A DNA stretch of 45,504 nt, filler included, from Catajapyx aquilonaris (GCA_000934665.2; 2 parts of 2 records of this genome joined end to end with filler, not necessarily neighbours in it), one strand, 5' to 3'. Positions 990-41,700 are shown, counted from the whole stretch's first letter. A program made the numbers and translations. The notes: generated by a model from the letters alone, not told the origin.

Positions 990-1394
990 GCGAGATTCCG
1001 GAACCCACACCGTTTGGCTCAGGTCGGACGGTCGGTCGGTCGGTCGCCGGTCGGTCGGTCGCGCGGCCGTGCGGCGTGAACCAAGTGGTGTGGCTTCAGG
1101 ACTATATTCCGGAAGCCACACCACCTGGCTTGAGGTCGCACTCGCACGGCCCGTGTCGCGGTTTCAGACCGCAGCCGCTGCCCCGCTGGTATAATAGGCC
1201 AAAGAAACTTCACATTTTCGCCCGGACATTACAAAATGAGCCGAAAAATGTAATACAAAACGACGCTGCAAAAGTGCATCAGGCTTGCAGAAACATGATA
1301 GTCTACAGTTCTCATGAACAGAGTGACTATGAGAGTGACAGTGTAACGGAGCAGCAACTTCACATTTTCCACAAGCATTCAGACAATTTATTTA
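990..1394 (+). repeat. About 400-bp repeat, left copy of an inverted pair (possible long TIR)
   Basis: Reverse complement of 6159-6551. Both copies begin GCGAGATTCCG at the outer end. Confidence 0.9.
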
Positions 1395-1451
1395 ACGTGG
1401 CCATCGGGGTCAATGCTGTCAATAATGGTGACAGTTTATGTTGTTGTTTTT

Positions 1452-1476
1452 GTCGTCGTCGTCGTCGTCGTCGTCG
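1452..1476. repeat. (GTC)n microsatellite
   Basis: Tandem gtc run. Confidence 0.9.
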
Positions 1477-1553
1477 TTGTTGTAGAGACTGCTTCACTGG
1501 CACCCTTCACTGGCCAGCATACTTCGATTTAACAAAGAGCTATAACTCACGAG

Positions 1554-1881
1554 CAGTGCCGGATTTACCCCCTCGGCAGTTGAGATCCGCCCCTCCCAAT
1601 GCCGCTTCAAATTTCAATTTCTTCTGTCGAGTTCTCTCCTTCATTTCATTTTATTTTATACAAATTATATTCCAACTCTTTAAACTTATGGCCGCCCCGG
1701 AGGGCGGCCGCCCTTAGGCGTTTCTGCCTATAGTGACAAATCCGGCAATGGGAACCCCCCGAATTTTTTTATGATTTCGCCTTTATTTCTTATTATTGTA
1801 GCCTATTTGAAAAATATTCATTGCAACTTGCAGCCGCCCCAAGGCAATTCCCTACTCTGCCCAATGGTAAATCCGGCGCTG
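1554..1881. mobile_element. MITE with CAGTGCCGGATTTACC TIR (hAT-like)
   Basis: CAGTGCCGGATTTACC at 1554 and GGTAAATCCGGCGCTG ending at 1881 (15/16 match). A second right-end-like copy lies near 1738-1750. No clean TSD. Confidence 0.55.
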
Positions 1882-2022
1882 CTTCCAGTCGCGTAATTAT
1901 TTATTATTAATTTTTCGTCTGCTTTTTTTGTATGCCCCTTGAAATCTGCCGCCCGAGGCAATATACTGACTACAGTAGGTTGCCTTGCCGTTTTGAAATA
2001 GGGGGTTTTCCTAGAAGTATAA

Positions 2023-3121
2023 GGGGCGGATTCTCGTGGACTCCCGTAAGTCTGCGGGCCCCCAAGTCCGTCCAAGATGGCGACGGATGCGGGACCCCAG
2101 AAAAGTGGCATACATGTGGTAGCCCGTAAGTCCTTACAAGGAAGAATTGAAAGTAGGGGGGAGAAATTGGGGTCCTTGGAGCTCCGCCCACCGGAAAAGG
2201 ACAGGAGCCAATGGCGCAGAGGAAAAGGGTGCATTCCCACCGCCGTACAATGGACAGCGACGGGATTAAACGCTATTGAGAAAAGAACAGCGAGAACTGC
2301 CACCGATCGTACCACCTGCATACGAATTCGGGTTTCGCTATTAATTACTTAATTAGGCAGGCCCCTATGATATTTATGTAGGGAGTAGCTATCTCATGCA
2401 CAGAAGCAAAAGGATGCAAGTGCAGTTCTTTCCTTGTGGGCTGGGTCTCCAGTCACCAGGTTTCAAAGTGCTTGAGATGTTGAAATGTGTTACAATAATT
2501 AATTAATTTTTAATTCCCCTTGCTTTACAATAATTACATTCATACAACCTGAAATTGAACAAAATTATCATGGTATATGAGTTATAAGGCTACTTTTAAG
2601 CAGCATCCAAACAAAATAATAACAACAATAGATAATATTAGCTCCCAATTTTCTGGCAGCCGTCACATTTCATCACTCTCAACACTTCCTAACTCTCATG
2701 AACCAAACTATTACCAGTGTGTGGTACATTGTAAGCATCCATACATGAAACAGGTTTTCCCATTGACCAGCTTTTCGAGCAGATTCGGCCTCGGATTTCC
2801 CATCCCTGGCTCAACAATACGATGTCCTGAATCCAACCCTAGTAGTGGCGTCACTAGTGGCGAAATACTTACGTTTATGTGCACGTCCCGTGAGCGCAAT
2901 CAAAGGACCTGGGTATCAGTAAATAATTCGATCCCCGCCTTACGGACACACAGCTGCTGTCGGGGAAGCGGCCATCCCGTATCTTTGCGGCCTTTCCTTC
3001 CCGCAGCCCTTGCGGGAACGCGACACGATAATTCCACTTCGAGAGTTGCCGGAGCGTGACGTCACGTTTACGGGCGTTTGCGACTTGCGGGCCTCCCGTA
3101 AAGTCCACGAGAATCCGCCCC
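2023..3121. mobile_element. PIF/Harbinger non-autonomous element, 1099 bp, TAA TSD
   Basis: TIR GGGGCGGATTCTCGTGGACT / AGTCCACGAGAATCCGCCCC, flanked by TAA at 2020-2022 and 3122-3124. Confidence 0.9.
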
Positions 3122-4426
3122 TAAACCTGTATCGTGCTGGCAAGGGGTGTCAGTTGATAACTAATTTACCATAATGGTGGAACATGACATCAATACGAGC
3201 ATGACAATGGTAATCCTGAATTTGATAATAATTCAGTGAAGAAGTGTTGTGGATTTTATGAAAGAAATAAGATTTGTCACCTGGACTCAAACAGTAGATT
3301 CCTGTTTGTGAGTGTACAATCTGGTTTTATTACATAACCTCCTGACGCCCATCGTACAGCCCTCTAGCCATTGGGTTTTATATTTTTTGAAAAAAATTAA
3401 TTTTTTTTAAAAAATAAAAAAATATTCTGGGCTTCAGGAGGATAAACTTCCCCTCTGGATGGTTTGTGGTGTGGAAAAAAAATAATTGAGGGTAGTCCCA
3501 GGAACATGAGATACTTATTATGGCTACTGGGATGGAGGGTAATTGATTCGTTATTATTTTGTGCTCCAGCAGTTTCATGATATGTATGCCATATCCAGGT
3601 ATTTCCCTGCCTCGATGCATGGCCCTTTCTGTGGGCACTGTGGCTGTGCTGCAATAAATACTTTAATCTCAAATGAATATGCAAAAGCAAAACATGTAAT
3701 GATCCAAGTATGCTGCCAGTGAAAGCAGACTGTACAACAACAACAACATAAACTGTCGCTCTTTGTCGTCTAGGGTTCTCCCTTTTTTCAAGGAAACCAA
3801 CGAAACTTTGTCGGGGGGTTCTCCCGTTTCCTCTCACAATCAAAATCCATCACAGCAAAGGCAATGATTAAAGTCGGTCAATTAAAAGATGATCCCCTAA
3901 AAAGCTGAAGGAGGCTTATCACGGGGTATCCATTATCTCCACTGTCATCTGTTGTGGCCCCGCCAGGCAGGGTTCGTCGCCCTGCAGGATATTTTTAGGT
4001 AATGCGGAGAGGAAGCGGAGCTGGGCGATTATTGTGGGTTTCGTATCCGCAACATTTACAGTACTGTCCGTCTTGTGGCGGCGGAGGCCAACGGACGTTA
4101 TTGTGGCTTTGCCAACCTCCAATCCCCTGCTGATCCCACCGCTGATATCTTGTTTGCTTGCTCCGGGAGGTTCATGCTACGCCGCCAAATAAGTCGCAAT
4201 GGTTAACTCATCTAAGCTAAGCTATCCGCTGAAAATCATAAAAGATGCTCGATCCGGATCCAAGATGGCGGCATAGTTAGAAATAAGTGGGGCTGGAAGT
4301 AGCAGCGTATACATATGACAGCTTTCTGAATATTCTGAGGCGCAGATTGAATCAGTTGGCAGACCTGTATTGGCGGGAAATGAAATAGGTGGCGGTTAGG
4401 ACTTTTGGCGGGAAGGGAAAGCGGCG

Positions 4427-4543
4427 GCCTGAAGAATTAGTGCCGTACTGACCAAAAGGTGGCAGCACTCCCTTGGCCGCCGCCAATAAAGGCCGCCAAG
4501 GGAGTGCTGCCACCTTTTTCGTCACGGCACTACTTCTTCAGGC
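4427..4543. repeat. Short hairpin/MITE carrying two inverted AGGTGGCAGCAC motifs
   Basis: gcctgaagaattagtgccgt...aaaaggtggcagcactcccttggc is mirrored by gccaagggagtgctgccacctttt...acggcactacttcttcaggc. Confidence 0.8.
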
Positions 4544-4570
4544 AGCAACATCTGGCGTTCCAGACAAGGC

Positions 4571-5020
4571 TATTATTATGGGGAATAAGGAGGTTGGCCC
4601 AGCATTGCCTTTCAACCTCCAAGGATAGGGAAGGAAGGCCCAGAGTATTATTGAGTCACGACTGTAAGCTTGTTATAATCTATTCGCATATTAAAAGACA
4701 TTATCGAGTGCCTACCTATTTGATTACTGGTAACCGAAGTGCCCCCAACCCGCTGGGTCCGGCACATGACCTACGCACCCCATCCCCATCCCCTTATCCC
4801 CCATCCCAAACCCCTTCTCCCCATCCCCCTTCCCACTCCTACACCTATATCACCCCAAATTACCGTTACACTATAATACGGAAGCGACCCCGGAATTATC
4901 CTAGAAAGACCGTGGAAAACCACAGAAAACCACGGTCAGGGTTGCCGGCCCCGGGATTCGAACCCAGGACCTCCCGATTAGCAGTCGGACGCCCTATCCA
5001 CTATGCCAACTTACTTCGGT
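4571..5020 (-). mobile_element. tRNA-derived SINE
   Basis: Minus-strand head with A box TGGCATAGTGG and B box GGTTCGAATCC, then the GGTTTTCTGTGGTTTTCC core typical of arthropod SINEs. Ends in an (ATA)n tail at about 4571-4579. The 3' boundary is approximate. Confidence 0.75.
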
Positions 5021-5248
5021 CCCCCATGCCTACACTATTGCATGCGACTGAAGCTGCCCACAACCCTAGCAGTCATCGTGGCAACAGCTGTCCTCCACAA
5101 TAAGGCACTGAAACAAAGGGATCCCTTGCCCAAAGACAAGCCTGATGGTCGTCAGAGACAGGATCAACCAGACCTGTGGCCTTATCCTGGGCGGCAATCG
5201 AATGGGTTCCTGTACCGGAAGTCCTTCATCCAGAGGAATTTCACATGA
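5021..5248 (+). mobile_element. Harbinger (HARBI1-like) transposase C-terminal remnant
   Basis: PCLHYCMRLKLPTTLAVIVATAVLHNKALKQRDPLP...GFLYRKSFIQRNF* matches the C-terminal IIVACAVLHN...R..LI..F pattern of PIF/Harbinger transposases. The 5' part is missing at the SINE junction. Confidence 0.75.
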
Positions 5249-6158
5249 ACCATGAATCAAATTTCGTTAGCCTACTGTCTTGGCCAGTGTCTTGCACATG
5301 CATTGAGGTCTGTTGCTGGGTGCACTCATGCCAATGTAGGGTCTCAGGGGAGTGGTTAATAAATTGTATTGTGGTCTGGTCTTAAAATGAATCATTCGTG
5401 GTGGTCATGTTCACTTCCGGTTGTGACGTCACCTGGCCGGACTGCTCGATCAGAAGGCTCAGGGATGAATTACGTGGGGAGCGACCCAGGCGGGGCCGGT
5501 GCAACCATGGGTGCAACCCGCGCTGCAGTGGGGGAACCCTGAGCGTCGTCGGGGCGGATTTCGTAGGGGTTCATCTGGGGCTTGGTTCGTAGAACTGGCC
5601 CTTAGCCGTCTGTCATCGTCCCCTGCTCAGCTCCCCTTGTTCCCCTTCCTCTCTACCCCTCACTCACTCCCCCCACCTGAGGAGGGCCAACAGTAGGGTC
5701 TACAAACCACCGTGGTATATAGGCCCCCCAATCGAACAGGCACTCCACACCTTATTGACAGCATTGGCCCCGAGAGCATAATAATAATCCCACCATCAAA
5801 AAGTTGGACTTGTCTACGGCTACGCTGAGAGAAATTCCAGCTTGTGAAGTTCCTTGTTCATAAGAAGTGCGATATTTTCGTCAACTGCTTGACTTTTACT
5901 TTTGTGATGTACAGAATTAGGTTGGTAGCAATGGTGTTTAATTGTAAAGGGAGTTGCTAGGGTTTTTGGGGAGTGATTGTTGTGTGAGTGAGAGAAGGAG
6001 AGGAGGACTGTATAAGAGTGGAGTCACCGACAAGAAACCAGCATCGTGTAAGTCAAAATCTTAATATCTTGGGGAAAATTACTGAGCAATCAAGAAGAGC
6101 GACTCCTGCCGTCCGCCCACTCGGGAGAGTCCGGACCGAACCAGAAGTTCCGTCACAC

Positions 6159-6551
6159 TTTAAATAAATTGTCTGAATGCCATATATTGTGGAAAATGTG
6201 AAGTTGCTGCTCCGTTAGACTGTCACTCTCATAGTCACTCTGTTCATGCTGTGAACTATAGACTATCATGTTCCTGCAAGCCTGATGCACTTTTGCAGCG
6301 TCGTTTTGTATTACATTTTTCGGCTCATTTTGTAATGTCCGGGCGAAAATGTGAAGTTTCTTTGGCCTATTATACCAGCGGGGCAGCGACTGCAGTCTGA
6401 AACCGCGACATGGGCCGTGCGAGTGCGACCTCAAGCCAGGTGGTGTGGCTTCCGGAATATAGTCCTGAAGCCACACCACTTGGTTCACGCCGCACGGCCG
6501 CACGGCCGACCGTCCGACCTGAGCCAAACGGTGTGGGTTTCGGAATCTCGC
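6159..6551 (-). repeat. About 400-bp repeat, right copy of an inverted pair (possible long TIR)
   Basis: Reverse complement of 990-1394. Gives the near-identical spurious ORFs 920-1717(+) and 6153-6527(-). Confidence 0.9.
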
Positions 6552-6674
6552 TCTTCTTTGGGACTATACTGTCAACTGTTTACATTGCTCAGTGTTCGAA
6601 TGGTGCAGACTGCTGGAGATGAAGTCGAACCCGTAAAAGGTCTGCTTTGGCTGAGGATAATTCAAGAGTGTGTA

Positions 6675-6828
6675 CTATGGGGCTCAAATTGTTTTGGCCA
6701 CTTTACCCTGGTCTTGAAGCAACCTTTCGCATAGGCCCCACGGTGAGGAGGTGTGTGTGTGTGTGTGTGCGTGTGAAGGGTTGCTTCAAGACCTGGATAA
6801 AGGGGCCAAAACAATTTGAGCCCCATAA
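6675..6828. mobile_element. Tc1/mariner-type palindromic MITE, TA TSD (copy 1)
   Basis: TA|ctatggggctcaaattgttttggcc ... ggccaaaacaatttgagccccataa|TA with a (GT)n core. Same family as 11645-11796. Confidence 0.85.
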
Positions 6829-7075
6829 TACCTACCATACTTCAAAATAGATTATTTGATAATTTATTAGACAGTGACTAATTTCCATCAACCGGCCGCA
6901 GGTCGCAATAATTATACGCTGTGTGTGTGACGTTCATTTACAGGTCCAATATCACATTTAGATCATAGTTCTTGATGTCTCATTGTAATGTGAGATAATC
7001 CTAATTAGCAAGAAGTGTTCCTCAGACAATCGCTGGTAGCATAACACACCCATTGTCGTCACCAGAAAAGACAAA

Positions 7076-8997
7076 ATGACGGACAGCATCGGATGGGAGA
7101 TTTGCATCATATGCAATCAAGCTGCCAGTCGTGGGTCCAGAAACATATTTGACCCACGTACGACGGTGTCTGACCGATCTGGAGTCGCCCTTGCAGACAT
7201 GCTGATGCATATTTTGGAACAGGAATTGTCCGCAGCCTGCGGGCCCACCGCAAAGATTTGCGGAACATGCTTCAAGTCTGTCCAGGGCCTTGCTGAAATG
7301 GAGGCAGATGTCATCCAGGAGAGGAAGAAGATCAGGGACAGATTCGACGATAGTTGCCGGATCAACAATTTCGGCTTGAGGGCCCTGACTGGTAAAGAAC
7401 ACCACGATCACACCTACTCCCTCGGACAAAGCCACTCGCCTGAAGCGAAGACAACAGAACCACCAGTCGGGGCTGAGTTGAATCCCGAGATTACCAACGA
7501 GAGTCTGCTGAGCGAGCTACTGTATGGGCCCTCTCAGAGAGAGGAGAACCGCCCGTACAGGTGTGATGTGTGCCGGCAGAGCTTCCGGCTTGCCAACGAG
7601 TACGTGAAGCATCTGAACGAAGCCCACGTGGCCGATGAAGGTAGCATCGAAGTACAGATGTTTTCCCTGAGCGTTGGTGACTACGAATCCAAGAAGGAAG
7701 TTGAAGCCCAGGTTCAGGAAGAACTACGAGAAATTGCTGCCCCAAAAACAACACTACCAGAACTCACTCCTGAAATGAAAGAAAAGATTGCGTGGGCACT
7801 GAAGCCAGGTACAGAAATACTGTCAGAAGGGTACAAGGTGACAATCCTGCGCAAAGACGTGATGACGCTGAAAGGTCTGACTTGGCTAAACGATGAGGTC
7901 ATTAATTTTTACCTGAGCATGGTGGGTGACAGGGGAGGCACTGATGGCTTGCCCAAAGCATATGCCTTCAGTACCTTCTTCTACCCCACGCTGTTGTCTG
8001 GAGGCCACGCATCCCTTAAAAGATGGACAAGAAACACCGATATCTTTTATTATGACCTCATCATCATACCAGTGCACCTTGGCATGCACTGGTGTCTGGC
8101 TGTGGTAGACTTCAGAGACAAGGCTGTACGCTATTTTGACAGCATGGGAGGTCACAATGATCACTGTCTTCAAGTAAGCTGTCTTAATAAATTTCTTTTG
8201 CTTCTGTGTGGTAATGGCATGCCATTCATTCCCGTTGACGTTGTTATTATAGTGAAACCTGTATATAGCGGAATCTTTCTATTCTCCAAAAATTTTCCTT
8301 AGTAGACTTTCTGCTGTATAGGACAGTACTGTACTTCATAGAAAAAATCATTTAAGAACCATTAACAAGACAGTTTTCTCCCAGCTGGGTGTTTTTTTTT
8401 CCACCAGCAAGCCCCTCAAGTACAATTTTTGCCCTACGTCCTGTTCAGAGAATATGTGAAGCAGTCGTTTATGCAGTATTAATTCCACAACACACAGAGT
8501 TGGACTTGAAAATGTTCCCTTTTTTCTTCATTAGCCAAGTTCCATTATGGCAGACAAAATCACATGGGAAATCCTCTTTTGCTGCTGGCACTGTAAAAGA
8601 TTTTCCTCAATAGACAAGTTTGTGCTATATCCAAGGTCTGCTAAAGGCAGGTTTCTTTGTATTGACAAATAATAGTATTGATGGAAGACTGAAAAAAGAA
8701 TACTTTGATATGATTCGGTGTACTAACAAAATCATCCACATGCAGGCCATTCTCCGGTATTTGGTTGATGAGAGTGTGGACAAGAAGAAAGTACTCTTTG
8801 ACACAAGCGACTGGAGGCTCATCAATGTGCCTGACATCCCGCTGCAGGGAAATGGAAGCGATTGTGGCATGTTCGCCTGCAAATATGCAGAGTATGTGTC
8901 AAGAGATGCGCAGATAACCTTCTCACAGGAAGACATGCCTTACTTTCGAAAGCGGATGGTGTATGAAATACTCACACGAAAACTGATCTCCCCGTGA
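7076..8997 (+). CDS. ZAD- and C2H2-zinc-finger-fused SENP1/Ulp1-like SUMO protease (peptidase C48), 2 exons, about 449 aa
   Basis: Exon 1 is 7076-8173 and exon 2 is 8746-8997. The phase-0 intron 8174-8745 has donor CAA|gtaagc, branch point tactaac at 8721-8727 and acceptor tgcag|GCC. Catalytic-domain motifs: [29 protein letters not shown] (His, Asp), [16 protein letters not shown] (Gln, Cys), [13 protein letters not shown]. The N-terminus has CIIC...ICGTC followed by a helix (ZAD pattern) and [24 protein letters not shown] (C2H2). Confidence 0.92.
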
Positions 8998-10519
8998 TTT
9001 CCCCCCTGTAATGTAACAGACTGAAAGGTGAAAGTTTTTCGTTGATGGAAAAATTCGATGAAGACGTTCATTTTGAACTTGTACGTATAGGCAGTTTTCT
9101 GTGGCAAAGTGTCTTTGTTATGATGACATAAAGTTGTCTCATTTTCTGCACCAGGGGCTGTTAATGTTATTGCCCATTATTCCTATTTTTTGTTAGCTAA
9201 CACATTTCTCAACAACTCTAGAATTAGAGAGCTATATTTATTACCCCCATATTTTTTGTAAGTAGAATTCATCATAAAGTTTCATGTCTTTGTCAACACG
9301 GTCATTGTACTGTGAAATATTGCATCCAAAACTCCATGTGATTTTGAAAGGCAAATCCAGACTTCAGTTTCACATCCAGATGTCCAAGTAATGGATTGCC
9401 AACAGGAGTATGGGTTCATTAAAGGCATGAAGGAATCAGAATGTAGTGTTACTACGTTTTTCTCTCCACAGTTAAATGAATGTGAATCTTAACCAAAGAT
9501 CCAACCAAAGTTCAATGATGAGCATTACATTAAGAATGGCTTTCTCTGGTGCACCATCATTACATCTTGAAAATCTTCCCTAGAACAGTGTAGGAAAGGC
9601 ATATCACATTGTGCACATGACTTGCGCATAATATGCTTGGAACGAGCAAAATTCTTTGAGAAGAGCCATTTCCATGTGAATACCACAGTTAGTCTTTGGC
9701 ATGACTCCATTAACAGATATGTTTCAATAATCCTTCCTCCACTTAGAGCCAACAATATGGGAGGCTCTCATGAAATGCTTGGTCAGCTCCATTACAGATG
9801 TTGCACTAAAGGTGAAAGAAGGAATGTTGAACTCTCTTCATCAATAAACATACGAGGTAAGCTTAGGTGCTAAAAGTTTCTGGCCTATGTTCCAGGGTTG
9901 TAAAAATAGAACGAAGTGTAGTCTGCAAATGCTCATAAAGTGCCTCCTGCAACTCTTCATCAATGCTGAATAAATTTTCTACCTCCAAGTCTTTTTTGAG
10001 TTTTAAAAACAGGCAACAGACTATACCTGGGCTGTAGGGGTGAGACCCATGGCAGTGGCAGTGTCATGATCATGAATGTAAATGGTAGATTAGCTGGATG
10101 AAGAGCATAAAGTTAGGAAGTGATCAGCCACCTATTGCATAATAATAATAATAATATCTCCGAAGGTCGAAATCCTATCCGGCTGCTGCTTGACTGGCAA
10201 GTGTGGAAGTGTAGCTGCGATATCATTCACTTGACTTTGTACTGACATTATCCAGGAAAACTGCCACCTGCGGCAGACCTAGTATCAAAAGTGATAAAAA
10301 TGAAATAGTTGTCTAGAAAAGTCAATCCACTTTTAAAAAACATTTTGACAATATTGCATAACAAATCCTAATCACTAACAACTGTATGGGTACTTTAAAA
10401 TTTCTGCATGAATACATTCTGATTCTCTCAAGTTTGGACTTAAAATAATCAGACTGTTTGTTTGCTTAGGAAGAAGCCAAAGCATCTGTAGCTATCTAAG
10501 CTATTAAATTAGGAGATTC

Positions 10520-11565: not shown

Positions 11566-11644
11566 CTGCAACAACCAATGTGTTGTCATGGACCCCAATG
11601 AATGACAAGATTGTTCAGGATTAATCTACTGTAGTATGATTGTA

Positions 11645-11796
11645 CTATCGGGTTCAAATACTTTTGGCCACTTTATCCTGGTCTTGAAGCAACCCTTCGC
11701 ACAGACCCCACGTTAAGGAGGTGTGTGTGTGTGTGCGCGCGCGAAGGGTTGCTTCAAGACCAGGATAAAGTGGCCAAAAGTATTTGAACCTGCTAG
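11645..11796. mobile_element. Tc1/mariner-type palindromic MITE, TA TSD (copy 2)
   Basis: TA|ctatcgggttcaaatacttttggcc ... ggccaaaagtatttgaacctgctag|TA. Confidence 0.85.
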
Positions 11797-12038
11797 TACA
11801 TTACTGACAGAACCTGTTGTAACATTATTTCATACAAAAAGCAAGACCACTGCCTACGTTTTGTGCATGATAATATTGTTACTAATACTAGTCTATAAAC
11901 CTTTAGGCAATGTCCACAAAAAAAGCTGCATTTTCTGCTTGTAAAAATGTATTAATTTTAAAGTATTTCATTTATTATCAGTATGGCTAGTATCGTGACA
12001 CTTGTTTGGGAAAAACTCATGCAGTCATACCATAATAT

Positions 12039-17550: not shown

Positions 17551-18083
17551 GGTTTTTTGCTTAGACCATATATACCAGTAGACGCTCCCCTCCCGTTTAC
17601 GAGCAAGCGCAGAAGTGAAACCTGCCGTTCTGAGGGGGGGATCACGTGACTTAGGGCAAAAGGGAGGCGGGAAGGCGAAATTAACATGGCGCCTTATGGG
17701 GATTCCGACTGTCTTTGCGCCGTCACTGTCAGGCGCCTATTGGGACTAAAAATATGCAATGGGTACCAAATGATAGCTCCACTCATGCCCCGTCTCATGC
17801 CGTACATCTCCATCCGAGAGGTTGAGCGGGGAAGGACATAAAAAATCCTACACTTTGTCATTGTTTCTCGCCGGAAGTGCAGTTTGTGTCACTACATCAC
17901 TCAAACAACCACATTAAAATGCTCCAAATTTTAATATGTTGTACAGACAATCTTCCTCTGCATATTTCACCAACTCGGGGCCGATTATAGAGGTTGATTT
18001 AATTATTCGAAAATAAAAAAGTGATATCGGAACTTAGGGCAGCTTCAGTTATAAGTACTGATTGATCAAAGTCCGTGCAAAAC

Positions 18084-18085
<2 letters not shown>

Positions 18086-18165
<80 letters not shown>
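18086..18165. repeat. (AAT)n microsatellite
   Basis: Perfect AAT tandem run. Confidence 0.95.
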
Positions 18166-18518
18166 TTTTATTTTTATTATGTACCCCGTTGTGGGCCTAA
18201 GCGCTATAGGGGGGTGGCACACCACCATCAGTTTTCTCAGTGTATTTACACTTTTTTTCTTCATTCACCGGTGCAAGGAGTCAAGGATGTCGGGTATAGG
18301 GGTAGGGATTTTTTGGGGAGGGAACATAGGTGCAAGTGCAATGTCTACAAATGGGTCATGTGCTGTCCCCCAGGAGGTTAGGTTGCCAGACACCTCCTTG
18401 GTGCAGGTCAGAGACCCTCCTGACGCAGGTGAAAGGAAAGTTCCCCAGGCGGGGATCGAACCTGGGGCCTTTCACTCAGCAAGCCGAGACGTTACCATCA
18501 CGGCCACCACACCTCCCC
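18165..18518 (-). mobile_element. tRNA-derived SINE inserted in the (AAT)n core of the foldback
   Basis: Minus-strand head GGGGAGGTGTGGTGGCCGTGATGG (A box) ... GGTTCGATCCC (B box), then a unique body and an A-rich/(ATT)n tail merging with the microsatellite. Confidence 0.8.
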
Positions 18519-18575
<57 letters not shown>

Positions 18576-18637
18576 GGCACAATTATTATTATTACTGCTA
18601 CTATTGCTGCTGCTGCTATTACTATTACTATTATTAC

Positions 18638-18697
<60 letters not shown>
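18519..18697. repeat. (AAT)n followed by inverted (ATT/ACT/GCT)n microsatellite; foldback centre
   Basis: AAT run, then the short spacer aggcac, then an ATT-rich run. Confidence 0.9.
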
Positions 18698-18699
<2 letters not shown>

Positions 18700-19990
18700 G
18701 TTTTGCGCGGACTTTGATCAATCAGTACCTAACTGAAGCTGCCCTAAGTTCCGATATCACTTTTTTATTTTCGAATAATTAAATCAACCTCAATAATCGT
18801 CCCCGAGTTGGTGAAATATGCAGAGGAAGATTGCCTGTACAACATATTAAAATTTGGAACATTTTAATGTGGTTGTTTGAGTGATGTAGTGACACAAACT
18901 GCACTTCCGGCGAGAAACAATGACAAAGTGTAGGATTTTTTATGTCCTTCCCCGCTCAACCTCTCGGATGGAGATGTACGGCATGAGACGGGGCATGAGT
19001 GGAGCTATCATTTGGTACCCATTGCATATTTTTAGTCCCTATAGGCGCCTGACAGTGACGGCGCGAAGATAGTCGGAATCCCCATAAGGCGCCATGTTAA
19101 TTTCGCCTTCCCGCCTCCCTTTTGCCCTAAGTCACGTGATCCCCCCTCAGAGTGGGAGGTTTCACTTTTGAAAGGGAGATGGAGCGTCTACTGGTATATA
19201 TGGTCTAAGGTTTTTTGTTGGTCGCGTCAGAGGGAGGTGTGAACGCACCCTATTTCTCTTTCTTCACGGCTGGACGGTTGGTGTTCCTTCTCAGCAAGGT
19301 GTATAGAGGACCGGTGGCTCCTCTCCAGGCTTGTTTGTGCAGCCCGTAAGCAAGGCAAAAGCGGGTTCAAATTTTCTCCGCCAGAGCGCACTTGCGTCGA
19401 CCTTAGGTCTAGGCTGAGGCCCAGGCGTTGATAAATATGTTCACTTCTCTACTTTCAGTCTATAGTTCTAGGCCTGGTCAAGCGTCTGTGGTCTCAAAGA
19501 TTAGAGAATAGAAGAGAGCCTATTCACTTTTTTTTGGGGTGGTCGCCCTATCGTCGATCGTCGCGCGCTCTGTCGGCAGATTTCTAAGCTGATTTCCCCT
19601 TCGAGAGGGGCTTCACGAATAAGCAGCTATTTTGGCCCAAGTCGAGGCACCGCTGTACCTGCACCGTGCTTCTCAGGAATCTCAGCCATTATTCCACACG
19701 ATCTTGACACGTCCGGGAAGCAAGTCGCCCAATTCTAACCCCTCTTCCATCGAAAGCCGAGCCTAGGGCACCGCCCGTGCTACACACACTGACGCAGAAG
19801 CTAGTCTCCACAGCAGGTGAGCATTCTGTACTATCCATTTCGGTCTAGTTCTAGTCCTAGTTGTAGCACCCAACTGTCACCTTGAGACGCAGCTTGGATG
19901 ATGTATTTGATCGTCGAATTTAGGGACGAATAAAGTGGCACCTAGTACATGACACTTGTTTTATTGTTTCCAGGTTATTAGTGCCGAATT

Positions 19991-20338
19991 ATGGCTGCAA
20001 CCAGGGAGGAGAAGGTGATGTATGCTGGTTGTGAAGGACCGGATTCCAAGTACGTGAAGTTGATCTCGTCAGATGGGCACGAATTCATTGTCAAGAGGTG
20101 CTACGCCCTGACCTCGGGAATCATCCAGGCCATGCTGAGTGGACCAGGGCCGTACTCAGAGAAGGAGACCAACGAGATCAAGTTTCGGGAGATCCCATCC
20201 CATGTTCTGCAGATGGTCTGCTGGTACATCCAGTACAAGACCCAGTTCACCATTTCGCCCACGCAGAACCCAGAATTTCCCATCTCCCGTGAGATGACCA
20301 TGGAGCTGCTAATGGCTGCCAACTTTCTCGACTGCTGA
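19991..20338 (+). CDS. EloC: Elongin C (ELOC/TCEB1) diverged paralog, 115 aa, intronless CDS
   Basis: The translation [24 protein letters not shown]...AMLSGPG...FREIPSHVL...PEFPI...[11 protein letters not shown] matches Elongin C end to end. Probable 5'UTR intron 19817-19973 (cag|gtgagc ... tttccag|). AATAAA at 20617-20622. Confidence 0.95.
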
Positions 20339-38744: not shown

Positions 38745-41700
38745 ATGAGTGTGACCTCTTCGGTAAGATGTTTCAGGGTCTATGGCACATGTAATGTAGC
38801 CTGATTTTTCTTCAAGGATGACTGGAGGAGTGTTAAGAGACCGGTTTTCGCCAACCGCTTCTCGGGCCTGGTTCATGGACAAAAGGCCTTCTTGCTGTCG
38901 AATGCGGAAGATAAGCCGCCCTGGTTCCTTTGTATCCTACTGGCGATGCAGGTGAGCCTATTGCCTTAGAGGCTGCCCTGTCCCATCCCTCTAGTGTCAA
39001 ACACTGAAGCAATCCACTGGCAGATAAAGATTTCTCGGGAAAGACCAAGACAAACATTAGTATTTTCTCTCCACTTTATTTTATAGCCTGATGGGGGCTC
39101 TAATTGCTTCAGAATCTTGTCACTAAGACAAACTTGCCATTTACGTGAAACTGACTTGAACTCATTGGGGCTACTGCAGCACGTGTTCAGCACCATAGCG
39201 GCCATGAAGCTTTTTGTGGATTTTTCCAACGAGTACTACTTCTGCTCTCCGACGAAGTCAGCAACCTTGCTCTTATCTTCCACCACAATCATGATCTTTG
39301 GAATTGTCACCCTGGCTCAAGCCTTGATTGGGGCCAGGTGATTATATTTATTTCTCTCAATATTTCTCATGGTATACATGCGCACATCTAATTGGATTAT
39401 ATACTGATATATCCGAGCTGTTTCTTGTCGGCTTACACCTTATACCTTACACATTACTCGACAGATTCTACAGTTGACTAAAACTCGCCTTTTTAGGATG
39501 CCTCAAGCTCTGTCAGTGTCGAATACTCAAGCCTATTACACACTGGTTTTTCTGTCAGACGAGCTGCGGAGTGAGGAGAAGTTGACAACTAGCTGCCACA
39601 ACATTCTGCACAACTCAGCTCTCGGAGGGTACGCCTTAGACCGTTTCAACAGACGGATGCTATTGTACCAGGGTGTCGTCGTGATTGAAGGGATTTTTCA
39701 AGTGCTTGTGGGCTTCTTCGGTAAGGAAAATCCTGGCACTTGAGGGGTAAAAACTAAAAAGAGAAGTTGCGGTTACATCCGTAAGCTGTCATTTGCATCG
39801 AGAGAGAGGATTGGGCATTCACTTTTGACCTGCAGCACAATAATTGCACCATACCTAACTTCAGTTCGGATGATGATCGTACACACTTTTTCACTTGGTG
39901 CTGCATTACCTGCTCATTGGGTGTAACTATATTCCTCGCTGCAGGTACCATGGGGTTCGTTGGGAAGCTGACTTCCCCGACAGTGATGGCGGCGCTGCAG
40001 CTGGTGCACTCGGTGTCCGTCATAGGTTGGTACGTCACTCTTATTCGAGTTGACTACAACCTTGTCTTTTGGTAAGTGAAAGTCATTTCGTTTGACTCAA
40101 TATACTGTATTTGAATGACCCCATGATCGATTGTTAATAACTGCAGGAACTGTGAATAACGGGATATGTGCAAGTATAAGAAATAGCGATTTCGTTCTTC
40201 AAGCACCATTCATAGGATTGAAAAATCCCAAGTTGTAAAATATGTTACATATATCGGAGCTGAAGTAATCGACACGCTCGTTTTAATTTCCAGCTCCATT
40301 TTCTTTCTGGCCTTGTTCTCCGTGATTCTGGGGACTTTAAAGGTGCAGGTACCGGTGTTGAATGAAAATACCTGGGTCCGCATGAAACGGGTGCAACTCT
40401 TCAGGCTATATGCAGTGAGTAGCACTCATCATACCAACTAGATTCTCAACAGGATGAAGCATCATGCTCCGCTGCCAAAGAGTTTCTGTGAATCAGAAGA
40501 CATAATATTCAAAGCAATTTTTGCGGGGGGAAAAAATGCACTTACCTTTTGAGAAGGCAGTCAATCACATCCTGTGGCCATTTTTCCAGTACTTCCTGGC
40601 TCTGCTGCCCTGCATCCCGATATACTTTTTCGGCGGGTTCAATACTCTCCCAGACACTGTCACCAGTGAAGGTGTAATGGTAGGCACTGAGAAACTGGGC
40701 ATCGATCAGCCGGTGCCGTACTTCCGGATTCCCATGCCAGGTCAGTTCGGAGCACCGGCGATGATCCCACTTTGGTCGGCATTGCCCGTGGTGCTGCTGA
40801 GCTGGCAGTTAAGCCTGGAGTGCTTGACCAGCTACATCTACCTGGCCAGCACTGTGGGGATGCCCAACCCTCCCCCGGACGCCCTCAACCGGGCGGTGGT
40901 CATCAACGGTCTGGGATATATCCTGTCAGGGCTCTGCGGTGGCTATGGGGGGCCGTGTCCCCACAAGACCATCACCGGATACATCTTCATGACTGGACAC
41001 GGCTCCAGGCGGGTCACCTACTGCCTGGCCCTCATCCTCATCATCATTGGCGTCTACCCGCGCCTCACGAGCTTCCTCCTTGGACTGCCGCTGTCATTGC
41101 TCTTGGGCGGGGAGTTTTTCGTTTGGGCCGTGGTACTAGGTCAAGGCAAGTGTGAATTTCTAGCCCGTACGTTATCCGAATTTCTGACACATGCTGCAAG
41201 CACAAGTAACATTTATTGAATACCGGTAATCAATCAAATAATGGGGTCCTAGCCAACATTTTGCAAACCCGTATCAATAATCGTCCTTTTGGTTTGAAAA
41301 CATACGTATTAGTTTTCGAGTTATGATCGATCTAAGATCATATTAATTATACGGTATCGGCCTGCCCCTTGATGTCACTGTGGCCACCCAGATCGGTGCA
41401 GAGGCAGGAACGCATCCGAACTGCTTTGTTCGTTCGTTTGTATGCTTTGTTGGCGACCTTAACAACGGAATCAAACGAACGCCAGTATAGCAGGTGCATC
41501 GGTCTTCTGACGTCACTGTGGTCAGGCAGGAATGGGAATGCGCCCTATAGGCCACGCCCCCTTCCCCCCGCCAAATTGATGGTGACTTTTAAACCCGAGG
41601 AATATATGGCATTTTGGTGCTGAAAAGTGGCGGAATGTGCTTATGCAGTAGGGGTGGTTGAGCTATTTGTGTACAAATTTTCCAAATCCCAGACCAAGGC

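Follow-up and report, generated by a model that had tools for sequence, protein, structure and literature searches.

Human SENP1 and SENP2, together with Ulp1 of yeast and Drosophila, are recognised as SUMO proteases of MEROPS family C48. The specificity of the SENP enzymes is largely N-terminal, and in SENP1 it is normally the long, disordered N-terminus that governs localisation and the choice of substrates. Ulp1-type domains also occur in the C48-carrying Mutator-like elements (KI-MULEs), in which they are fused to zinc-binding, DNA-binding modules; the proteases of these transposons are far from host SENP1 and lie next to a transposase. The only roles known to us for ZAD heads are those of dimerisation and chromatin binding, as modules of zinc-finger factors.

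Structurally, the ZAD is described, in the portion of PMC7913770 available, as a homodimer in which four cysteines are invariant, helix 1 is short and helix 2 is long and amphipathic, the layout running from an N-terminal Cys pair through the short helix to a second Cys pair that leads into the long helix, followed by a variable linker and the C2H2 fingers. According to the part of PMC7655104 available, the ZAD proteins of D. melanogaster contain about six fingers on average, and 13 of them carry another N-terminal domain; members without any C2H2 include dlip and dbr, CG10321 has an ASF1-like domain, and CG12391 belongs to the same group, in which the partner domain is of another kind or missing. 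These four proteins reveal that the ZAD is not strictly bound to finger arrays, and a protease partner goes unmentioned in those sections of the survey, for them as for the proteins with another N-terminal domain. Outside insects, the excerpts of PMC7913770, PMC12649048 and PMC8887482 name ZNF276/ZFP276 as the single vertebrate ZAD-like protein, which resembles the locus reported here in its ZAD-like head and differs from it in being a transcription factor that has an array of fingers and no enzyme domain.

In the window, by which we mean the whole stretch of 45,504 nucleotides of Catajapyx aquilonaris DNA that was analysed, a two-exon gene on the + strand (7076-8173 and 8746-8997) gives a joined reading of 449 codons, in which a single uninterrupted frame carries a ZAD-like module and one C2H2 finger ahead of a complete C48 protease of the SENP1/2 type. 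The features of the gene are as follows.

7076..8173, + strand: exon 1 coding, 366 codons, with the ZAD-like module, a linker, the C2H2 finger, a further linker and the first two thirds of C48 (from the ORF, Pfam and the PDB alignment)
7100..7333, + strand: ZAD-like module, residues 9-86, with C10/C13 at 7103-7114 and C62/C65 at 7259-7270, then a predicted long helix
7562..7627, + strand: single C2H2 finger, C163, C166, H179 and H184 (from Pfam and PDB zinc-finger chains)
7575..7673, + strand: junction zone, where the unique 5' part gives way to sequence that close relatives also have, with approximate borders (from run contigs)
7754..8173, + strand: C48 catalytic domain, first part, from residue 227, with W270, His338 (8087-8089) and Asp355 (8138-8140) (from 2xph_A and PF02902)
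8174..8745, + strand: intron, 572 nt, GT..AG, phase 0, 37% G+C
8746..8997, + strand: exon 2 coding, the last third of C48, with Gln400 (8845-8847), Cys406 (8863-8865) and the stop at 8995-8997
8998..9248, + strand: 3' untranslated region, at least this far, common to the spliced relative (790-nt contig of run X5 on 8743-9248)

The reading frame is open from 7040, and its first ATG, at 7076, is found 36 nt past an in-frame stop. Exon 1 ends at 8173 before a consensus donor (CAA/GTAAGC, with the GT at 8174), and exon 2 begins behind a pyrimidine-rich acceptor (CATGCAG/GCC, with the AG ending at 8745), from which the phase-0 reading continues to the TGA at 8995-8997. The initial annotation had described one long exon encoding a ZAD-like domain, one C2H2 finger and most of a C48 protease, and had joined it across 8173/8746; the same exon coordinates and open frame were recovered, and the junction proved to be a canonical GT/AG boundary of phase 0. 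The third-position G+C content is 0.64 in the 5' part versus 0.50-0.57 in the protease part, a contrast that gives a weak hint of two origins.

The protease part is colinear with human SENP1, the alignment being gap-free at the splice junction and reaching the end of the chain (2xph_A, E 7.7e-47 for residues 225-363 of exon 1 and 1.6e-27 for residues 2-81 of exon 2). Peptidase_C48 (PF02902) is matched at 6.3e-19 by exon 1 and at 6.2e-17 by exon 2, with 69.1 and 62.6 bits against a gathering score of 20.7. The other PDB matches of exon 1 are SENP2 (3.6e-39), SENP3 (1.5e-22), SENP5 (8.1e-21), Ulp2 (4.7e-10) and SENP7 (7.4e-8), E values that place the domain closer to SENP1/2 than to SENP3/5, SENP6/7 or Ulp2; Ulp1, too, trails SENP1 and SENP2 by a wide margin. 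Its identity to the 207 full-length C48 domains gathered from two protein searches has a median of 55% and a maximum of 62.9%; identities of 55-63% to SENP1 proteins indicate a host-type SENP1/2 domain rather than a distant Ulp1-like one.

Both tunnel tryptophans, the catalytic His/Asp/Cys and the oxyanion Gln are covered by W270, H338-W339, D355, Q400 and C406, and the HW, DSMGG and Q-x5-C motifs match human SENP1 column for column. The intact triad and oxyanion Gln that the initial annotation had claimed are thus H338, D355, C406 and Q400, the human counterparts of which we take to be His533, Asp550, Cys603 and Gln597. The likeness to SENP1, SENP2 and Ulp1 therefore lies in a complete colinear catalytic domain with the triad, the oxyanion Gln and both tunnel Trp, whereas the protein here has 449 aa against about 550-700 in most relatives, and a ZAD-like module with one C2H2 finger takes the place of the long disordered N-terminus of SENP1 and SENP2. 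Ahead of the catalytic core, 137 of the 207 homologues have 2 residues more. As the frame is open and the ligands and catalytic motifs are intact, it can be argued from the sequence that the product would fold and cut SUMO, and it should be an active SUMO endo/isopeptidase.

Residues 9-86 match zf-AD (PF07776) over profile positions 1-72 of 75, with 23.1, 23.5 and 25.6 bits on three extracts (E 9e-5 to 1.5e-5), all of them below the gathering score of 28. The putative ligands C10, C13, C62 and C65 form two C-x2-C pairs with 48 residues between them; the module is followed by a linker (87-158) and by the finger (163-184), and its N-terminal position is that of ZAD proteins. The finger is a regular C163-x2-C166-x12-H179-x4-H184, for which zf-C2H2 gives 18.5 bits over residues 161-184 (E 0.0026), under the cut-off of 25.2, and PDB zinc-finger chains match residues 158-185 with E values from 0.001. 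As a chance control, the 104 other ORFs of at least 75 aa in the window yielded no Pfam match at E <= 0.001. The element order of the head agrees with the ZAD layout published in the available part of PMC7913770. In comparison with the ZAD-C2H2 proteins Grauzone, CG2712, Pita and Zw5 (PF07776), as far as the sources available describe them, the head shares the C-x2-C...C-x2-C arrangement, the predicted long helix, the disordered linker and the C2H2 finger, while it differs from them in its one finger, its C-terminal enzyme and a Pfam score under the cut-off. The firm name ZAD given to this region at the outset was accordingly too strong at 25.6 bits against 28, yet the match is significant, spans nearly the whole profile and retains the four cysteines; in the HMMER check as a whole, C48 stands above its curated cut-off, and zf-AD and zf-C2H2 both fall below theirs.

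An Atlas language-model search with residues 1-230 led to arthropod ZAD-zinc-finger clusters with scores of 0.93-0.95, PF07776 being present in 9 of the 10 matches listed. Chance alone yields scores of that height at a rate of a few per cent, and these neighbours may be taken as supporting a ZAD-like head, short of proof. All of exon 1, submitted to the same search, retrieved only zinc-finger clusters (0.80-0.81), none of which combines zf-AD with C48. In the PDB, phmmer with residues 1-230 and 1-100 found no ZAD chain, the matches being C2H2 fingers and insignificant copper-storage proteins only; a single-sequence AlphaFold2 model of residues 1-105 has a pLDDT of 38.7, too low for a comparison of folds.

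Homology to SENP1 proteins begins at about residue 200-227. In a HMMER search of 1.84 billion representatives, all 150 listed matches start at residue 116 or later, most of them at 200-230, and for the N-terminal 225 residues the 1254 word-sharing candidates, 201-641 aa long, included no relative at E <= 0.1. Residues 116-226 were also aligned with two SENP1 N-termini; the resemblance is weak and keeps no ligand of the finger, and homology was rejected. The surveys of architecture span a few hundred relatives. PF07776 is absent from the precomputed Pfam assignments of all 120 listed relatives of near length, and neither zf-AD nor zf-C2H2 was detected at E <= 0.01 in the 80 best representatives scanned. 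From 80 environmental SENP1-like loci, 45 longer ORFs were chosen and 6 with stops were removed; the remaining 39 contain neither domain at E <= 0.001. The literature search disclosed no paper combining zf-AD with Peptidase_C48 and nothing relevant on such a fusion. The combination of a ZAD-like module, a C2H2 finger and a SENP1-type protease, which the initial annotation could not recall as described, thus seems to be undescribed, as judged from these sequence surveys and searches.

Five public sequencing runs that contain the stretch are labelled as one organism, comprising four DNA runs from one sample and the run X5, of unrecorded kind and from another study; none of the five is recorded as RNA. 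A 790-nt contig of X5 lies on 7895-8170 and 8743-9248, with 25/276 and 24/506 differences and an identity given as about 91%. It joins 8170 to 8743 and so omits 572 nt; this joint, in which two letters are ambiguous, fits the intron 8174-8745 provided that the contig reads G at 8173. The intron-less joint is found in none of the contigs of the DNA run X1, and the depth of X5 is almost confined to the exon and 3'UTR parts, a pattern that looks like spliced RNA, although, X5 being of unrecorded kind, the contig could also be DNA of a processed copy. With about 9% difference, the 790-nt contig appears to represent a relative, either a paralogue or a very different allele, and not the exact sequence of the window.

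Another contig of X5 is 1762 nt long and matches 7674-7809 only, at 97% identity. The other approximately 1.5 kb of this contig, which lie on the 5' side of the gene, are unlike the window, where the coding sequence 5' of 7674 amounts to just 0.6 kb. That the match stops at 7809 may be explained by the window being 2 residues shorter there. Over 7010-7612, X5 has zero depth at 90% likeness, a value that carries no message on expression. In X1, window-like and other letters occur together at 7926 and 7930, window-like letters alone at 7989-8126, and other letters alone at most of the listed places in exon 2. The summed contig depth of X1, which is not a copy number, is 16 over 7010-7411, 53-66 over 7613-8215 and 42-54 in the intron. 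Taken together, the run data hint that there are fewer versions of the head than of the protease part, the intron and the 3' flank.

With somewhat more belief than doubt, we favour a chimera of recent origin and fast evolution, either a paralogue or an allele of the species' own SENP1-like gene, the product of which would probably be a deSUMOylase that dimerises or is directed to chromatin. One donor would have been the 5' end of a gene of the ZAD-zinc-finger type, contributing the ZAD-like zinc module, the disordered linker and the first C2H2 finger only. The other would have been the species' SENP1-like gene, whose 3' two thirds, from the pre-catalytic linker over the whole catalytic domain and the last intron to the 3'UTR, were duplicated beside or into the ZAD-zinc-finger gene directly past its first finger. 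The in-frame join may be placed somewhere in 7575-7673, and the usual long disordered N-terminus of SENP1 would thereby have been swapped for the ZAD-like module. We infer, in short, duplication and fusion as the origin, and dimerisation, targeting and activity for the product.

ZAD modules form homodimers and support chromatin binding, according to the part of PMC7913770 available, and the functional argument is drawn from these Drosophila proteins. By this analogy, the outcome would likely be a dimeric deSUMOylase sent to partners or sites other than those of the parent enzyme; any function beyond SUMO cleavage by a SENP1-type enzyme whose ZAD-like head probably dimerises would be an extrapolation from the Drosophila ZADs. 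The interpretation given in the initial annotation is supported in part, for the single frame, the complete protease and the absence of the architecture from the relatives surveyed; the dimerisation, the chromatin targeting and a part in TE silencing are conjecture. The fuller proposal, of a working dimeric deSUMOylase directed to chromatin or partners, recent in the species and evolving fast while the SUMO system is remodelled more widely in this lineage, perhaps amid a conflict over SUMO-dependent silencing, is regarded as unlikely. If true, it would provide a natural case of a ubiquitin-like protease retargeted by the dimerisation module of a transcription factor, and a ZAD-SENP1 fusion would show the redirection of a deSUMOylase through domain shuffling. 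Such a fusion would also be a simple test case for the effect of the head on localisation and substrates, and a gene that by its appearance is young and fast-evolving could mark an evolutionary conflict over SUMO-dependent silencing.

Comparison of the window with the 790-nt contig gives 32 listed differences in coding sequence, by our count about four fifths of the total, and these fall in 27 codons, of which 19 are replacement and 8 silent. This pattern comes close to what neutrality predicts and is far from that of a conserved SENP1 domain, from which relaxed or diversifying selection can be argued. When the majority of the 207 homologues is used as the polariser, 12 replacements look derived on the window's side and 7 on that of the relative. 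Rare residues of the window include G284 and Y325, each seen in none of the 207, and T305, seen in 11, where 173 have K. A quick tree was built from 41 C48 domains, seven named matches being omitted as their C48 match was not full-length; in it the domain encoded in the window falls in the SENP1 polytomy outside the well-supported insect clade, with an end branch of 0.51 versus a median of 0.26. The copy may, on these sequence comparisons, be on its way to decay rather than specialised.

We consider it unlikely that the fusion is real in the DNA without being a working gene, that is, a neutral young chimeric duplicate, or a locus yielding a protease-only transcript from an internal start such as Met195 or Met234. 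Besides the 19:8 ratio and the finding of no RNA over the 5' part in the five runs, this possibility is favoured by an intron-less and divergent copy of the housekeeping gene Elongin C in the neighbourhood, in view of which the region may collect young duplicates. Against it, 449 of 449 codons are open, the splice sites are canonical, and nothing is missing from the catalytic and SUMO-tunnel motifs, the four Cys that would bind zinc or the ligands of the C2H2 finger. If untranscribed or decaying, the gene would merely exemplify gene birth via chimeric duplication.

It is likewise improbable, in our estimate, that we are dealing with the SENP1 orthologue that is ordinary for the lineage, or with one among several equivalent copies, each with a fast-evolving N-terminus of the ZAD-like/C2H2 kind. 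The N-termini of SENP1 proteins are poorly conserved in general, and the listed matches align only from about residue 116-247. The mosaic of identities (97%, 91%, and X1 switching between the window and X5) might be due to allelic variation or to gene conversion within a single locus, and a homologous but faster-evolving 5' part of the relative would escape the 90% likeness setting. However, the X5 contig drops sharply from 97% identity to unlike sequence at 7674 and extends 1.5 kb further 5' versus 0.6 kb, the head is found in 0 of the 239 relatives examined, and the window combines unusual replacements with a long branch. The orthologue reading is the less likely because a relative of 91-97% identity appears to have an unlike 5' part.

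The position of the intron was compared with the 80 environmental loci. Where these have introns, the boundaries repeatedly fall near residues 275, 343, 369, 395 and 427 in the numbering of the window's protein, whereas the window gene has none of these five and carries its single intron 8 nt upstream of the 369 position. In the four loci inspected at the nucleotide level (L047, L050, L072 and L077), the intron is of phase 2 and interrupts the codon aligned to L369; L078 shares the HSP boundaries of L077. No intron at exactly the position of the window's was seen among the environmental loci compared, a result that weighs neither for nor against retroposition or intron loss.

That the junction is an artefact of assembly, joining an unrelated ZAD-zinc-finger exon to a SENP1 gene, is very improbable. 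The X1 contig over 6802-7604, of depth 16 and without any difference from the window, does end at 7604, and none among the longest pieces listed bridges 7604-7674; but the join is in frame without a stop, 82% of the sampled words of 6900-9200 are present in X1, and all 30 bins of that run have depth.

The weakest alternative, a transposon-borne Ulp1-like protease as in the C48-carrying Mutator-like elements, was rejected as scarcely credible, for while the gene is flanked by two copies of an abundant 160-nt palindromic MITE (6671-6831 and 11641-11800), the protease is host-like, with 55-63% identity to host SENP1 proteins across animal phyla, no transposase such as KI-MULEs possess was found, nor any integrase or reverse transcriptase, with Pfam matches in 0 of the 104 window ORFs, and the outer flanks of the two MITEs have no target-site duplication in common. 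The flanking MITE family reaches enormous depth in the DNA run. The Rfam search returned one tRNA-like match only, and a permease-like ORF at 40506-41216 finds matches of only 26-28% identity, to vertebrate SLC23A2.

The chimeric protease gene, which joins a ZAD-like head and one C2H2 finger to a SENP1/2-type C48 protease, is accompanied in the window by the following repeats and reading frames:

6671-6831 and 11641-11800, direct order: two copies of a 160-nt palindromic MITE-like element, one on either side of the protease gene
1048-1374 and 6187-6516: 330-nt inverted repeat, arms 97-98% complementary
4951-5008, minus strand: tRNA-like match within the interval between these arms
18062-18780: long trinucleotide microsatellites, giving poly-Ile, poly-Asn and poly-Tyr runs when translated in several frames
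19994-20338, plus strand: complete single-exon Elongin C reading frame
40506-41219, plus strand: 237-aa ORF of the xanthine/uracil permease family (Pfam 6.9e-17)

The two MITE-like copies are 85-88% alike, and the family is an extremely abundant one, since the summed contig depth across the first copy reached about 44,900 in X1, a DNA run of the same labelled organism, a figure which is not a copy number. The unit spanning 1048-6516 may represent a non-autonomous element bounded by long terminal inverted repeats, or else a pair of SINE-like copies; its arms enclose 4.8 kb, in which several ORFs of 150-220 aa gave no Pfam match.

Within exon 1 of the protease gene, the block 7674-7809 matched at 97% a 1762-nt contig of X5, a run of unrecorded kind from another study of the same labelled organism. 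Splice-like letters edge this block (CCCTGAG/C at 7671/7672 and CAG/GTAC at 7809/7810); they may mark former exon boundaries or the limits of a conversion tract, or may have arisen by chance.

The Elongin C frame, located 11 kb from the protease gene, aligns colinearly with its human counterpart (E 1.4e-48) and carries many replacements within stretches that are conserved as a rule; it is possibly a divergent retrocopy. The permease-family ORF, which shares just 26-28% identity with vertebrate SLC23A2, represents a divergent nucleobase-ascorbate transporter exon.
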